The notes under the pieces are model-generated. The model was not told where the DNA came from, searched no databases, and was given only the letters and a program-made list of their open reading frames with translations. Shown in pieces: positions 296 to 12,127 of a stretch of DNA of 64,000 nt. The stretch's first letter is position 1. Every line of letters begins with the position of its first letter. Made by a program: the position numbers and the translations under genes. Source of the stretch: an uncultured Candidatus Rokubacteria bacterium (GTDB lineage Bacteria; Methylomirabilota; Methylomirabilia; Rokubacteriales; DASRDR01); the NCBI GenBank assembly GCA_963805625.1, contig CAWDVE010000010.1, positions 512,001 to 576,000 of the forward strand. The letters run 5' to 3'.

Positions 296-2155
296 CTAGC
301 CGAGCAGGTGCGCGATCGCCTGCTCGTCGGCGGGGCCGACCGCCGTGAGACGCATCCGCACGAGGCCCGGGGCATCGCCGGGGAGCACCTTGGCGTAGAT
401 GGCCTCGGAGGGCCGGGAGAGCGGCGGCGGGTACTGGAGCCTGAGCTTCACGTTGGTCAGCGGCGCGAGGGGCTCGGCCATCTGCGCGTGGAGCTCGCGC
501 TTCTCGAGGCGCACGAGGCGCCCCGTCAGGGCGTCGGGGCGAATGATCTTCCCGTCGATCACCCAGCACTCCAGCGAGAGGTCGACGGTCACCTGACGTC
601 CGGGCTCCGGTGCCGGCGGTGCAGAGGCCCGCTCGAACCGGCCCCCGAGCCCCTGGAGCTCGTGGACGATGAGAGGCTCGGAGAGACCCTTCACCTGGAG
701 AGCGGTCGGAGGCCCGACCCGCCCCAGCGTTCCCAGCTCGGCCAGGGTTCGCGCGGTGAGGAGGACCTGGCCCCCCACCGTCGCACTCTCGACGCGGCTC
801 GCCACGTTGACCGCGCTCCCCACCACCGCGTACTTCGCCCGCTGCTCGGAGCCGATGTTGCCCACCACCGCCTCTCCCGTGTGAAGGCCAATGCCCATCT
901 CGAAGGCAGGGAGACCCCGGCGGACGTGTTCGGCATTGATGCCGGCCAGCGCATCCTGCATCGCGAGCGCGGTCGCGGCCGCCCGCTCGGCGTGGTCCGG
1001 GTGCGCCACCGGCGCGCCGTACACCGCGAAGATGGCGTCGCCGATGAACTCGTTGATCGTCCCCCCGTGGGCGATGACGACCTCCGCCATGCGGGCGAGA
1101 TAGCCGTTGAGGATCTCCATCACCTCCTCGGGCGCGCCCTGCTCGGCGAATCGCGTGTAGCCCCGCAGGTCGGACATGAGCACCGTCACGATCCGTTTGG
1201 TGCCGCCGAACCGGAGCCCTTCCGGCGACTCGAGGAGCGCTTGGGCGACTTCCGGGGACACGTAGCGGCCGAACGCGGAGCGAATGAAGTCGCGCTGGCG
1301 CAGGCCTTCCAGCATGGAGTTGAAGGCCTGCGTCAGCCGGCCGACCTCATCCCGCGACGCCACGCGGAGCGGCGTGGAAAGATCCCCCGCCGCAACGCGC
1401 GAGACGCCGCCCGTCAGGAGCGCGATCGGCCGTGTCAAACGGCGGAGGACCAGGAGCCCGAGCACGAGCGTGGCGACGGCCCCCACCCCGCTCGCCAGCA
1501 GCAGGGTGTTCCGGAGCTCATGAAGCCGGTCGAGGTAGATCTCGACCGGGTAGGCCACATGGAGGAGGGCCTCCGGACGTCCCTGGGCGTCGAGGATCGA
1601 CGCGAAGCCGGAGATCCACAGGCCGCCCTGATGGCGGTACACGCGCGTGTAGCGGGCCACACCATCCCCGAGCGTCCAGCCCATGGGCTCGATCAACTCG
1701 GGAGCCAGGGGGTATGAATCGCCTGGCCGCCCGGGTCCGCTGCTGGCGATAACCAGCCGGGCGCTTCGGGCGGCGGGCTGGACGCCCGTGAGGATCGTGA
1801 TCGGGCTCGTGAGAAGGGTCTCGTCCTGGATGGCGGCGAGGGCCCGGCGTGCCTCCTGATAACCGGCGGAGTCCGGCGACTGGCTCGCGCCGACCCCCAC
1901 GTGAAGGCGTGGGTCCAGCGCGGCCACCCGGGCGATGTTGAGGAGCTGCGTCCCGACCGAGTCCTCGACCTCCCGCTGCTGGCGCGTGTAGGTCATGGCT
2001 CCAACCGCGCCCACGGCGAGGAAGGTCACGGCCGCGAAGAACGCGGCCAGGCGGACGCTGAGCCGCTGCCACGGCCGGAGCGGGGGCGGCGCCGCCGTCT
2101 CCGGGCGGCCTGGTATGGCAGCCTCAGGCCTGTGCTGACCATTCGACTTCTCCAT
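296..2155 (-). CDS. Membrane adenylate/guanylate cyclase (two TM helices, periplasmic sensor, HAMP, class III cyclase domain)
   Basis: HAMP motif (RDEVGRLTQAFNSM); cyclase motifs VLMSDLRGYT, EFIGDAI, GIGLHTG, GSAVNVASRVES. Confidence 0.92.
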   Translation of the reverse strand: MEKSNGQHRPEAAIPGRPETAAPPPLRPWQRLSVRLAAFFAAVTFLAVGAVGAMTYTRQQREVEDSVGTQLLNIARVAALDPRLHVGVGASQSPDSAGYQEARRALAAIQDETLLTSPITILTGVQPAARSARLVIASSGPGRPGDSYPLAPELIEPMGWTLGDGVARYTRVYRHQGGLWISGFASILDAQGRPEALLHVAYPVEIYLDRLHELRNTLLLASGVGAVATLVLGLLVLRRLTRPIALLTGGVSRVAAGDLSTPLRVASRDEVGRLTQAFNSMLEGLRQRDFIRSAFGRYVSPEVAQALLESPEGLRFGGTKRIVTVLMSDLRGYTRFAEQGAPEEVMEILNGYLARMAEVVIAHGGTINEFIGDAIFAVYGAPVAHPDHAERAAATALAMQDALAGINAEHVRRGLPAFEMGIGLHTGEAVVGNIGSEQRAKYAVVGSAVNVASRVESATVGGQVLLTARTLAELGTLGRVGPPTALQVKGLSEPLIVHELQGLGGRFERASAPPAPEPGRQVTVDLSLECWVIDGKIIRPDALTGRLVRLEKRELHAQMAEPLAPLTNVKLRLQYPPPLSRPSEAIYAKVLPGDAPGLVRMRLTAVGPADEQAIAHLLG

Positions 2156-2184: not shown

Positions 2185-2537
2185 CTAAGGATGCGCCGTT
2201 GCCATGCGGCGGTCTACCCCACCAGGCCGGGCCCTGGTCGGAGGGCCCAGGGCGCCGTCAGGCCGCTCGGCGCGGGAGTATCCCAGTTTGAGAGACGCGA
2301 CTGAACGGTGCTACGCTGACTTCGTGCATGGTTTCCCGTGGGCGGCGCGTGGTATCCGGGCGTGATGAGCCCAGGCGTGGTGGCGGCATCGCCCCTTCCA
2401 CGGGGTCTGAGTCGCCCTGACCCTCCGCGGGGCTCGGGTCGGCCGTCAGCAGACTCCGCGCATCCCGTCCCTCGAGAAGGTATCCTTCCCTTGTGGCCCT
2501 TCGTGGAAATCATCGACACGCTTCGAGGAGGCAACCG

Positions 2538-3035
2538 ATGAGGGTCAGATCACGCTTCGCCCCGGTGCTCCTGGCGCTCCTGGCGGCCGCGCTCCTGCCG
2601 GGAGCGGCGCGCGTGGGCGGCGCTCAGCAGCCGCCCATTGAGCTCATCCGGGTCGATCAGCTGAACGCCTTGCTCCGGAAGGGCACGGCGGCCCAGGTCA
2701 TCGACGTCCGGAGCCGACAGGAATACCTGACGCGCCACATCAAGGGGGCGATCTCGATCCCCCTCGACACGATCGAGCTGCGCGCGGGCGAGATCTCGCG
2801 CCAGGGCCTGGTCGTTCTCTACTGAGCGTGCCCACACCACCTGGCCAGTTTGGCCTACGGCAAGCTCCAAGCGTTGGGATACCGGAACCTGAAAGTCCTC
2901 GACGAGGGCATCCCGGGCTGGGTACAGAAGGGACTGCCGACGGAGGGCTGGGAGTCGCGCGGGCCGTTCGTACCGCACGGCGACGAGACCTACCGCGCCG
3001 TGGGGGTAGAGCCTCCCCCTCGCGCGACGCAATGA
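2538..3035 (+). CDS. Secreted rhodanese-domain protein, probable selenoprotein (in-frame TGA 2823-2825)
   Basis: GAGGAG RBS then ATG 2538; signal peptide; VIDVRS..EY...HIKGA, then VVLY-TGA-ACPHHLA..AY.KL..LGY.NLKVLDEGIPGW continues in the same frame (ORFs 2493-2825 and 2850-3035); final stop overlaps next ATG (ATGA). Confidence 0.85.
2826..2860 (+). promoter_or_regulatory. Candidate bacterial SECIS hairpin
   Basis: GGCCA-GTT-TGGCC (2843-2855); G-containing apical loop about 22 nt after the UGA. Confidence 0.55.
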
Positions 3036-3508
3036 GCACGGGCCCCGGCGCACCGGCGGTCCGCGAGGATCCCCGGGATGCGATCCCGCGCCTCCTGGCG
3101 GGTCGGGGCTATCGAATCACGGCGCCGCGCCGGGCGGTGCTGGACGCCCTCGCGTCGAGCCAGGAGCCGCGCACGGTGGCTCAGCTCCACCGCGCCCTCG
3201 GCGGCGGGCGTGTGAACCTCGTCTCCGTCTACCGCACCGTGAAGCTTCTCTGCGACGTCGGGCTGGTGCGCGCGACCGACGCGGCCCAGGGCCAGCGCCG
3301 CTACGAGCTGGCCGAGCCGTTCATGGCGCACCATCACCACATGATCTGCCGGCGGTGCGGTCACATCGAGGACCTCGACGGCTGCCTGCTCGAGCCGGAC
3401 GTGCTGGCGCGGTTGGGACGGCGCGTCAGACAGTCCCACCGGTTCCGCGTCACCGATCACGAGCTGCGATTCTTCGGGGTCTGCCGGCGCTGCGAAGGCG
3501 GCGCCTGA
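3032..3508 (+). CDS. Fur-family metalloregulator
   Basis: R-T..R..VL, SVYRT, HHHHMICRRC and C-terminal CRRC motifs. Confidence 0.93.
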   Translation: MSTGPGAPAVREDPRDAIPRLLAGRGYRITAPRRAVLDALASSQEPRTVAQLHRALGGGRVNLVSVYRTVKLLCDVGLVRATDAAQGQRRYELAEPFMAHHHHMICRRCGHIEDLDGCLLEPDVLARLGRRVRQSHRFRVTDHELRFFGVCRRCEGGA

Positions 3509-10426: not shown

Positions 10427-10515
10427 TGGTGCCGGGGGAGGGAGTCGAACCCTCACACGTCTTGCGACGTAGCGGATTTTAAGTCCGCCGCGTCTCCCAG
10501 TTTCGCCACCCCGGC
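10427..10515 (-). tRNA. tRNA-Leu(TAA)
   Basis: GCCGGGG acceptor stem, anticodon arm GCGGA-CTTAAAA-TCCGC, long variable arm, GTTCGACTC, CCA end. Confidence 0.97.
10477..10515. repeat. att repeat (5' half of the intact tRNA-Leu)
   Basis: TTTTAAGTCCGCCGCGTCTCCCAGTTTCGCCACCCCGGC, identical to 23472-23510. Confidence 0.95.
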
Positions 10516-11083: not shown

Positions 11084-12127
11084 CTATCCGCCGCTGGACA
11101 TCATGTGGGCACGGGCTAGCTTTTCCGCGCCCTCCCGCAGCATCGCCTCGTCCACAATCGCGTACCGGCGGTAGATCGCCTCCGTCTTGTGGCCGACCAT
11201 CTTCATCGCCGTCGAGCGGGGGACGCCGGCCCGCTCCAGGTTGCGCACCGCGGTCCGGCGAAGGTCGTGGGGAATCCGCCCCGGCACGCCGGCGGCCGTG
11301 CACGCGAGCGACCAGGCTTTGCGGAAGTCCCGGATCGGCTTGCCCCGGCGATGGAACACCCAGGGGATGATCCGCTTCCGGGCGCGCTGCCAGCGGTCCG
11401 TTTCGGTGCGCTGCGCGTCCAGGACCTCGTGCAACTCGGGCGTCAGGATGAACGTCCGCCCCTCCTGGTTCTTCGTGGTGCCCGGCTCCAGGCGGATCGT
11501 TCCGGCCTTGACATCGACCTGGCGCCACTGCAGCGGCTGCAGTTCACTCGGCACGCGCCACCCGGTGATGTAGGCGGCGGTCACGAGGCCGCGCAGCTCC
11601 GGCGCGAGCCGGCTCCGGACGGCCTCAAACTGCGGTCGGTCGAAGAAGCCCTGCCGGACGTTGTCCTCCCGGAGCAGGCGAATGCGGGGCGCCCGGTGGA
11701 GCCGCTCGGCATCGAGCGCGAGCGAATAGGCGCGCTTGAGCGCGGCCAACTCGCGGTTGATCGTGCCGTTCGCGGCGCCGGCGGCCTGCCGCGTGGTCGC
11801 GTAGGCCGTGAGATCTGCGCTCGTGACGTGGACGGCGCGCCGCGGGCCGAAAGCCGGCCGCAGATGCCCGAGGCTGATGTCCAGGCGGTCGAGCGAACGC
11901 CGACCGTTCGCCTGGTAGTCGGCCTTGAGGGTATCGAGCAGGTGGTCGACGGTGACCTTGTCGACGCGCGGGATCACGGGCCGGCCCTCGATCGCGGCGC
12001 CCTCTCGGACCTTCAGGAGCCGCTTCGCGTCCCCCTCCTTCGTCGACCCGCTCGACTCGCGGATGATCCGGTCGTGAGCGCGGTACTTGAGCCACCACAC
12101 GTCCCCCCGTCGATACACGCTGCCCAT
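11084..12127 (-). CDS. int: Tyrosine recombinase / phage integrase
   Basis: Catalytic set TGWR, TKN, HDLRRT, VGHKT, RRY; N-terminal arm-binding-like region GSVYRRGDVWWLKY. Confidence 0.95.
   Translation of the reverse strand: MGSVYRRGDVWWLKYRAHDRIIRESSGSTKEGDAKRLLKVREGAAIEGRPVIPRVDKVTVDHLLDTLKADYQANGRRSLDRLDISLGHLRPAFGPRRAVHVTSADLTAYATTRQAAGAANGTINRELAALKRAYSLALDAERLHRAPRIRLLREDNVRQGFFDRPQFEAVRSRLAPELRGLVTAAYITGWRVPSELQPLQWRQVDVKAGTIRLEPGTTKNQEGRTFILTPELHEVLDAQRTETDRWQRARKRIIPWVFHRRGKPIRDFRKAWSLACTAAGVPGRIPHDLRRTAVRNLERAGVPRSTAMKMVGHKTEAIYRRYAIVDEAMLREGAEKLARAHMMSSGG

Follow-up and report, generated by a model that had tools for sequence, protein, structure and literature searches.

A rhodanese gene in an uncultured Candidatus Rokubacteria bacterium is interrupted midway by a TGA codon, which raises the question of whether this codon ends the protein or is read as selenocysteine (Sec) and, if the latter, what a Sec-containing rhodanese would do for the cell. 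We analyzed the window, a stretch of 64,000 nucleotides of contig CAWDVE010000010.1 (assembly GCA_963805625.1, positions 512,001 to 576,000 of the forward strand) from a genome of 7.3 Mb and 69% GC, together with homologous loci from related and more distant genomes.

The rhodanese reading frame and its fold

The original prediction, made from the letters of the window, had joined two separately called open reading frames into one frame with a single TGA where rhodaneses carry their catalytic Cys. Re-reading of the sequence agreed: the frame opens with ATG at 2538, contains its sole in-frame TGA at 2823-2825 (VVLY-U-ACPHH), and closes with a terminal TGA at 3033-3035. This stop shares letters with the ATG (3032-3034) of a gene matching Pfam FUR, an overlap that had also been proposed. 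That the downstream half completes the fold was borne out by a match of the read-through protein to Pfam Rhodanese (PF00581, residues 40-130, E 1.3e-16, 61.4 bits, cut-off 22.2), which crosses the TGA, and by an AlphaFold model from a 24-row alignment, which formed a single rhodanese domain (pLDDT 82, with low confidence at N-terminal residues 1-25) and retrieved rhodaneses from structure comparisons with Foldseek and VIA (best Z 18.1, rmsd 1.3 A over 104 residues). In the model a helix starts at residue 101, preceded by Cys98. The features of the locus were as follows.

296..2155, minus strand: divergent HAMP-adenylate/guanylate cyclase gene (context)
2481..2486, plus strand: TATCCT, a -10-like hexamer (putative promoter), kept in 12 aligned upstream regions of the genus, one of which reads TATGCT
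2525..2531, plus strand: ribosome-binding site GAGGAGG, read from the sequence, with a GGAG core in 12/12 upstream regions
2538..3035, plus strand: putative rhodanese selenoprotein gene, 165 residues, single domain, one TGA read through (frame, Pfam, homologues, model)
2538..2624, plus strand: predicted signal peptide, residues 1 to about 29 (sequence, low pLDDT at 1-25, N-termini of the family)
2823..2825, plus strand: in-frame TGA, putative Sec96, in the catalytic-Cys column (Cys/TGA pairs, 82 TGA loci)
2823..2837, plus strand: U-x-C-P-H active-site motif, its C, P, and H invariant in 70/70 rows and 12 further rows
2843..2855, plus strand: putative SECIS hairpin GGCCA-GUU-UGGCC, inside the coding sequence (pairing, covariation, rare codons kept)
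3032..3508, plus strand: Fur-family regulator gene (Pfam FUR, E 4e-20), overlapping the rhodanese stop (ATGA), a genus-specific neighbor

The start at ATG 2538 was favored over GTG 2493 because of the ribosome-binding site at 2525..2531. A strict scan of the region for sigma-70 promoters and terminators found none. Elsewhere in the window, a tRNA gene (10431-10515) and an integrase-like open reading frame (11084-12127 onward) followed by phage-like open reading frames probably represent an integrated element.

Conservation of the in-frame TGA codon

A sequencing error does not account for the TGA, as two independent contigs that span it (X1 and X16) had no alternative letter at 2823-2825 and it recurred in relatives. 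Close orthologues were present in 13 of the 21 genomes of the family (70-99% identity, the window's genome included), 11 with TGA and two, G007 and G012, with TGC (Cys). The alignment of Cys with TGA that had been anticipated at this column also appeared among database homologues: of the best 120 of 228, 10 carried Cys, one carried Trp (P0030), and 109 ended right before the TGA codon. We then considered 82 loci with the motif U-x-C-P-H (window included) from three lineages, in all of which the stop was TGA and never TAA or TAG. The motif had been read in 75 profile-match loci of the phylum, 15 further loci, 6 loci of the family, and 15 from two outside groups, with L089, L090, L091, L199, and L212 dropped as duplicates; the set of 82 includes one 5'-truncated remnant (L074), and two of its rows share one core protein. 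The loci came from the window's family, a large sister family (f2, 55 loci), the phylum of genome G251 (labeled Nitrospinota, with the gene in 13 of 17 genomes), and genome G252 (labeled Thermodesulfobacteriota). Within the window's own phylum a profile search matched 153 of 251 genomes, paralogues being mixed in. A profile search against 1.84 billion representatives was little informative on range, its top 150 matches being mostly multi-domain rhodaneses, while the ESM Atlas queried with a Cys form (P0005) returned generic rhodanese clusters only and a sequence search of the PDB returned 16 generic rhodaneses.

Judging by substitutions among 11 members of the genus, the half of the gene downstream of the TGA is under purifying selection, with a pN/pS of 0.14 downstream of the hairpin compared to 0.38 upstream; pS was 0.153 in codons +1 to +12, compared to 0.36 and 0.43 in the flanks. 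Neither genome with Cys has lost selA or selB, and in a quick tree of 136 rows as well as in a tree of 48 rows the Cys forms fall inside the Sec clade, so these two versions are likely to be reversions from Sec to Cys. Two other loci departed from the pattern. Genome G270 has AGA (Arg) in place of TGA (L213:1882-1884) with an intact SECIS, which means either that the nucleophile was lost recently or that the sequencing is at fault. In G002, approximately 80 nt after a CxC paralogue, the Sec gene is represented by its 3' half alone, starting at LY-U (L074:11965-12003), which is either a remnant or an assembly collapse.

SECIS hairpin and selenocysteine machinery

The hairpin GGCCA-GTT-TGGCC that the original prediction had placed about 22 nt downstream of the TGA is present, its stem beginning 17 nt and its loop 22 nt after the codon, but by itself it is no better than chance. 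The 63-nt fold around it gave z = -0.10, and a loose SECIS consensus followed 44% of 3000 random TGAs in this GC-rich genome, for which reason whole-region RNA folding was dropped as support; the exact geometry lay behind 273 of 152,560 TGAs (0.18%). We instead take the hairpin as real because it is conserved and covaries across homologues. Its GUU loop, 22 nt spacing, 5 bp stem, and local fold of -8.3 fall within the bSECIS criteria (loop of 3-9 nt with G within its two initial positions, spacing of 16-37 nt, stem of at least 4 bp, and MFE of at most -7.5 kcal/mol) as given in PMC13188914. At all 82 loci the loop has G at +23 followed by G or U (82/82 each), thereby fitting the N1-G-[G/U]-N-N2 loop consensus of the same source. 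The closing pair was C-G in 51 rows, A-U in 27, and unpaired in 4, and the next pair C-G in 79, U-A in 2, and U-G in 1. Across 68 distinct rows, 95.9% of cells were paired and 21 cells carried two-sided changes, values that 0 of 500 shuffles reached and below which all slid controls stayed, though these covariation counts are inflated by kinship, two-sided change fell in only two pairs (48/500 shuffles were as high), and one pair was broken in 10 rows. Codon choice at the same positions is constrained as well: Ser at +8 is AGT in 15/15 cases (3% AGT share in the genome), Leu at +6 is never CTC (56%), and Arg at +8 is never CGC (42%). In the two Cys genomes the Ser at +8 is encoded by AGC and the hairpin stem is broken.

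The genome encodes selA (576 bits), a tRNA-Sec(UCA), and selD, itself with a TGA. Of the sel genes sought in the genome, selA, selC, and selD were thus found, and selB was found but frameshifted as assembled, with one base missing in a run of C/G (L007:2873, contig C21). selA was present in 21/21 genomes of the family and an over-cut-off selB in 20/21, comprising all 20 relatives. The missing base is present in contigs from three of four public runs, of which only that of X4 bridges at least 31 letters on both sides. The selB frameshift is therefore most likely an assembly error, the less likely alternative, left by the single full bridging contig X4, being a true mutation of the strain; other apparent pseudogenes of this assembly may be similar errors.

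SelB binds the loop of such hairpins and delivers Sec-tRNA, and by this established route it would insert Sec at the UGA of the rhodanese mRNA. Taken together, the TGA in 82 loci, its pairing with Cys in homologues, the conserved and covarying hairpin, and the presence of selA, selB, selC, and selD indicate that the conserved UGA is almost certainly read as Sec, as originally predicted. A true stop codon or a lesion at this site, leaving a 95-residue fragment, a split gene, or a pseudogene, is extremely improbable. Gene callers do end the protein there (in 109 of the best 120 homologues), selB is frameshifted as assembled, and the hairpin taken alone is unremarkable; against this, the codon is TGA at all 82 loci and never TAA or TAG, there are homologues with Cys, conservation is stronger in the downstream than in the upstream half, and the fragment would lack the active site. 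Decoding of UGA as Trp or Cys by an altered genetic code, to which the Trp of P0030 (probably its gene caller's choice of code) and the AGA of G270, with its hairpin intact, might point, is equally remote, given that TGA is the ordinary stop of both the rhodanese gene and fur, that a tRNA-Sec(UCA) is present, and that Cys fills the column in every other homologue read.

Relationship to known rhodanese selenoproteins

In its accessible part, a 2026 catalogue lists five rhodanese forms (1 to 5: UxxS, UxxG, CxU, UxxG, and UxxxxU), none of them UxC, and the two entries that it does give as UxC are of other families (PMC13188914); the accessible part of a 2022 review agrees on the rhodanese forms (PMC9312934). 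The main text of deep-Sep (PMC12013277) does not contain the word "rhodanese", and the strings YUAC, YUTC, YUSC, UACP, and UTCP are absent from its four supplementary files. Deng et al. 2026, as cited in PMC13188914, reported 63 selenoprotein genes in a Methylomirabilota MAG. In the parts of the literature available to us, a UxC rhodanese selenoprotein is not described for Methylomirabilota or Rokubacteria, and Haft and Tolstoy 2025 or Deng et al. 2026 may list the form.

Closest among the catalogued forms is form 3, CxU (NF041203, rhodanese_LYCAU), which likewise has a single rhodanese domain and often an N-terminus resembling a signal peptide. In both forms Cys and Sec lie two residues apart with Pro after them, and the CxU genes have the same type of hairpin sequence at 21-22 nt from their own UGA. 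However, Sec occupies the first (catalytic) position of the pair in the UxC protein and the third position of the motif in the CxU form. NF041203 was the best NCBIfam match of the window protein at 46.8 bits, with three distant members at 49.6-57.5, all below the cut-off of 115, and the UxC motif was seen in all 82 Sec loci, as the original prediction would have it; we therefore did not assign the protein to NF041203. In the tree of 48 rows the UxCPH proteins group with their Cys forms (100/99); this branch lies amid CxC paralogues and is separate from CxU, and a joint UxC/CxU clade with the nested Cys forms included was not formally rejected (p-AU 0.054). Either way, UxC would need a recoding event of its own, since its Sec stands in a different column.

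The other catalogued forms are more distant. Forms 2 and 4 (UxxG) resemble UxC in having Sec at the catalytic column, as in the representative IVY-U-AIGGRS of form 2 in the deep-Sep supplement, but this protein has a canonical GxR-type loop, a long C-terminal extension, no second Cys, and no CPH, and the motif U-x-C-P excludes membership in either form. Forms 1 (UxxS) and 5 (TsoB, NF045694) also carry Sec in the rhodanese active-site loop, albeit at other positions and in multidomain proteins (the window protein scored 27.9 against a TsoB cut-off of 805). PspE of E. coli is periplasmic and, like GlpE, a single-domain protein, as the UxC protein is, although both are Cys enzymes without a CxC pair. 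The same likeness and difference hold for Sud and Aq_1599, single-domain periplasmic sulfur transferases (PMC11284452). Assignment as a thiosulfate sulfurtransferase of the GlpE/PspE type was rejected on scores far below the cut-offs and on the loop, which is one residue longer and lacks Gly and basic residues. Nearest in the best tree are exported CxC(P) rhodaneses of islands with CopD and CusF, for which we found no named family; these share the loop length and the signal-peptide-like N-terminus but differ in having only Cys (none at all in the window's genus), no hairpin, and CxCPxEE in place of UxCPH.

Further rhodanese genes with an in-frame TGA were observed in the window's genome. One is fused to a membrane part, presumably DedA-like (C24:81198-81521, L164; similarly L181-L198), and has Sec as C-S/T-U-P-N with the same type of hairpin in many genomes of the phylum; scoring below the NF041203 cut-off, it may be another unlisted form. 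Two more are found on contig C19, one with C-A-U-P (112509-112811, L165) and one with C-W-D-S-A-U-D-L-S (147410-147625), the latter resembling form 1, so the genome would hold at least four Sec rhodaneses.

Active site, predicted export, and putative chemistry

A hydrophobic N-terminal stretch (mean hydropathy of at least 2.0), nearly always after a basic residue, was present in 66 of the 67 Sec loci with an assignable start, and the window protein has a basic N-region, a hydrophobic core, and small residues followed by QQPP. The original prediction of a secreted protein thus stood as far as a signal-peptide-like N-terminus is concerned, on a hydropathy heuristic in place of SignalP, and the Sec rhodanese is very probably exported. 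The proposed HH pair did not hold up as a feature of the family: the first His is invariant and the second occurs in only 24 of 82 loci.

The active-site loop, U-A-C-P-H-H-L, is one residue longer than the six-residue loop of thiosulfate sulfurtransferases and lacks the Gly and basic residues of canonical sulfurtransferases, as seen in the loop C-R-S-G-N-R of a characterized single-domain rhodanese (PMC11284452). Classic thiosulfate sulfurtransferase activity is consequently not assured, and the Arg of a C-X5-R motif is missing as well. In the window's genus a sister paralogue has lost both Cys, which means that a rhodanese fold can persist without catalysis. Still, catalysis of sulfur transfer or thiol redox reactions by the Sec rhodanese seems the somewhat more probable role. 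After secretion through a predicted cleavable signal peptide, the Sec96 selenolate at the catalytic position might attack a polysulfide, persulfide, or disulfide, and Cys98 would then take over the sulfur or close an Se-S bond. Re-reduction of this bond could fall to a periplasmic thioredoxin-fold partner, a candidate being the AhpC/TSA domain of a CopD-cytochrome c fusion encoded nearby. On balance we favor a predicted-exported Sec rhodanese that likely moves sulfane sulfur or reduces S-S bonds in the periplasm via Sec96 and Cys98, possibly within the handling of copper and envelope thiols; a role in copper handling is suggested by gene neighborhoods.

Gene neighborhoods and the copper and Fur associations

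To the left of the window the genome carries a bufferin-type operon (DUF2282, the MNIO protein BufB, DUF2063, DoxX) and the CopD-cytochrome c-AhpC fusion, along with a gene resembling CusF and a rhodanese paralogue that lacks Cys. The bufferin-type operon occupies positions 1-6 of the window and extends leftwards (C10:509533-512006); BufB scored over its cut-off in the orthologue tested, and bufferins protect against copper (PMC11626156, PMC12452194). The paralogue (L051, C10:507405-507700), outside the window and approximately 7 kb to the left, is an exported rhodanese beside CopD and CusF genes; proteins of its type are Cys-less (YAGTPEE) throughout the genus, whereas other genera keep CxC. 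Copper genes (CopD, CusF, CopC, DUF1775, BufB) accompany 9 of 10 loci of the genus. Among 16 loci of other lineages they were found at 9 (DUF1775 with a weak, below-cut-off CopD-like gene at six; CopC, CopD, or CusF at three), and the CxC sister paralogue has them at 17 of its 22 loci. We take DUF1775 (YcnI) to bind copper. At L070 the gene comes after a fragment of a heavy-metal ATPase and a gene with an HMA domain. In sister family f2, copper genes occurred within approximately 3 kb at 0 of 55 loci, the neighbors there being tldD/pmbA (49/55), moeA (41), and transketolase (34). The loci examined differed in length (2-20 kb), and these counts overstate the associations, as kin are not independent. 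In f2 (for example, L155, L109, and L142) the Sec rhodanese gene is flanked by tldD and pmbA, in a moeA-tldD-X-pmbA-transketolase run whose starts and stops often overlap; this placement, inherited as a single arrangement, finds no explanation in any copper model, and in the window's genome tldD lies next to pmbA with no such gene between them. By title or abstract, the literature gave no relevant account of a periplasmic rhodanese with copper or CopD, or of a rhodanese with TldD/PmbA. A link of the Sec rhodanese to copper is a possibility that we hold with some doubt.

These neighborhoods bear on the main rival to catalysis, which accepts Sec but makes the protein a non-catalytic periplasmic binder or chaperone of Cu(I) or another soft metal, with Sec96, Cys98, and His100 as ligands in U-x-C-x-H. 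The invariance of U-x-C-P-H, a loop without canonical anion-binding residues, and copper neighbors in several lineages as well as at most CxC paralogue loci are what such a binder would lead one to expect. Sec, however, sits at the canonical catalytic column, the f2 loci are free of copper neighbors, and known Sec proteins are mostly redox catalysts (as summarized in PMC13188914), so we regard Cu(I) binding as unlikely relative to catalysis.

The coupling to a Fur-family regulator that had been read from the window proved to be local. An adjacent fur gene was seen at 10 of 84 loci; all ten belong to the window's genus, where one further locus ends at a contig edge and one member lacks fur; it was absent beside the other 74, including all outside the genus, although some of these loci are short. 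The Fur-family protein scored below every NCBIfam Fur, PerR, and Zur cut-off, and inspection by eye of 12 aligned upstream regions revealed no conserved palindrome, what they share being the TATCCT hexamer and the ribosome-binding site. The proposed metal regulation through Fur is thus hypothetical, the recurring metal link being proximity to copper genes, and control of the Sec rhodanese by the adjacent Fur is unlikely. Less likely still is an iron- or zinc-responsive, Fur-regulated seleno-sulfurtransferase that binds metal on the HH pair. It would fit the ATGA overlap with fur in the window's genome, the fur neighbors of the genus, and one RNA-library contig (X16) that crosses the junction, which is not proof of a single transcript; the RNA runs X15 and X16 gave contigs with small shares and no measure of expression. 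The Fur-regulated reading sits badly with the lack of fur at most loci, the variable second His, and the absence of a visible palindrome. A Cdc25-type phosphatase or arsenate reductase of rhodanese fold, suggested by the seven-residue loop and by yeast Ygr203w among the fold matches (Z 13.8), is very improbable, as Cdc25/Acr2-type enzymes need C-X5-R and position +6 is Leu or Met, not Arg, in 70/70 rows.

Significance for the prokaryotic selenoproteome

On the evidence of its sequence, the UxC rhodanese, preferably read as a catalyst, appears to be a form missing from the catalogue, of a kind of selenoprotein already known; it does not represent a new type of system, and what it does is so far inferred. 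It is common in soil Rokubacteria. Because the catalogue treats the same domain with a different Sec motif as a distinct subfamily (PMC13188914), UxC would become the sixth rhodanese form, adding a widespread subfamily to the prokaryotic selenoproteome. A broader proposal, which we consider speculative and rather unlikely in full, sees in it a near-core selenoprotein family, not yet catalogued, of Rokubacteriales and one further phylum: a periplasmic rhodanese derived from a CxC rhodanese of the copper islands through recoding of its catalytic Cys to Sec, which together with the CopD-cytochrome c-AhpC membrane protein would link sulfane-sulfur chemistry with the detoxification or delivery of copper. 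The locus also exposes a systematic annotation error, as 109 of the best 120 homologues are stored as fragments without their active site. CxU and UxC share hairpin sequences (GCC-AGT-TTG-GC and GCC-CGG-G(G/T)G-GC) at a fixed distance from UGA but in a different protein register; under the broader proposal, UxC would be the mirror of CxU, and the pair would be a natural experiment in convergent SECIS evolution. Since nature provides this one active site with Sec, with Cys, without Cys, and in the mirror-image CxU arrangement, the benefit of Sec by position becomes directly testable.
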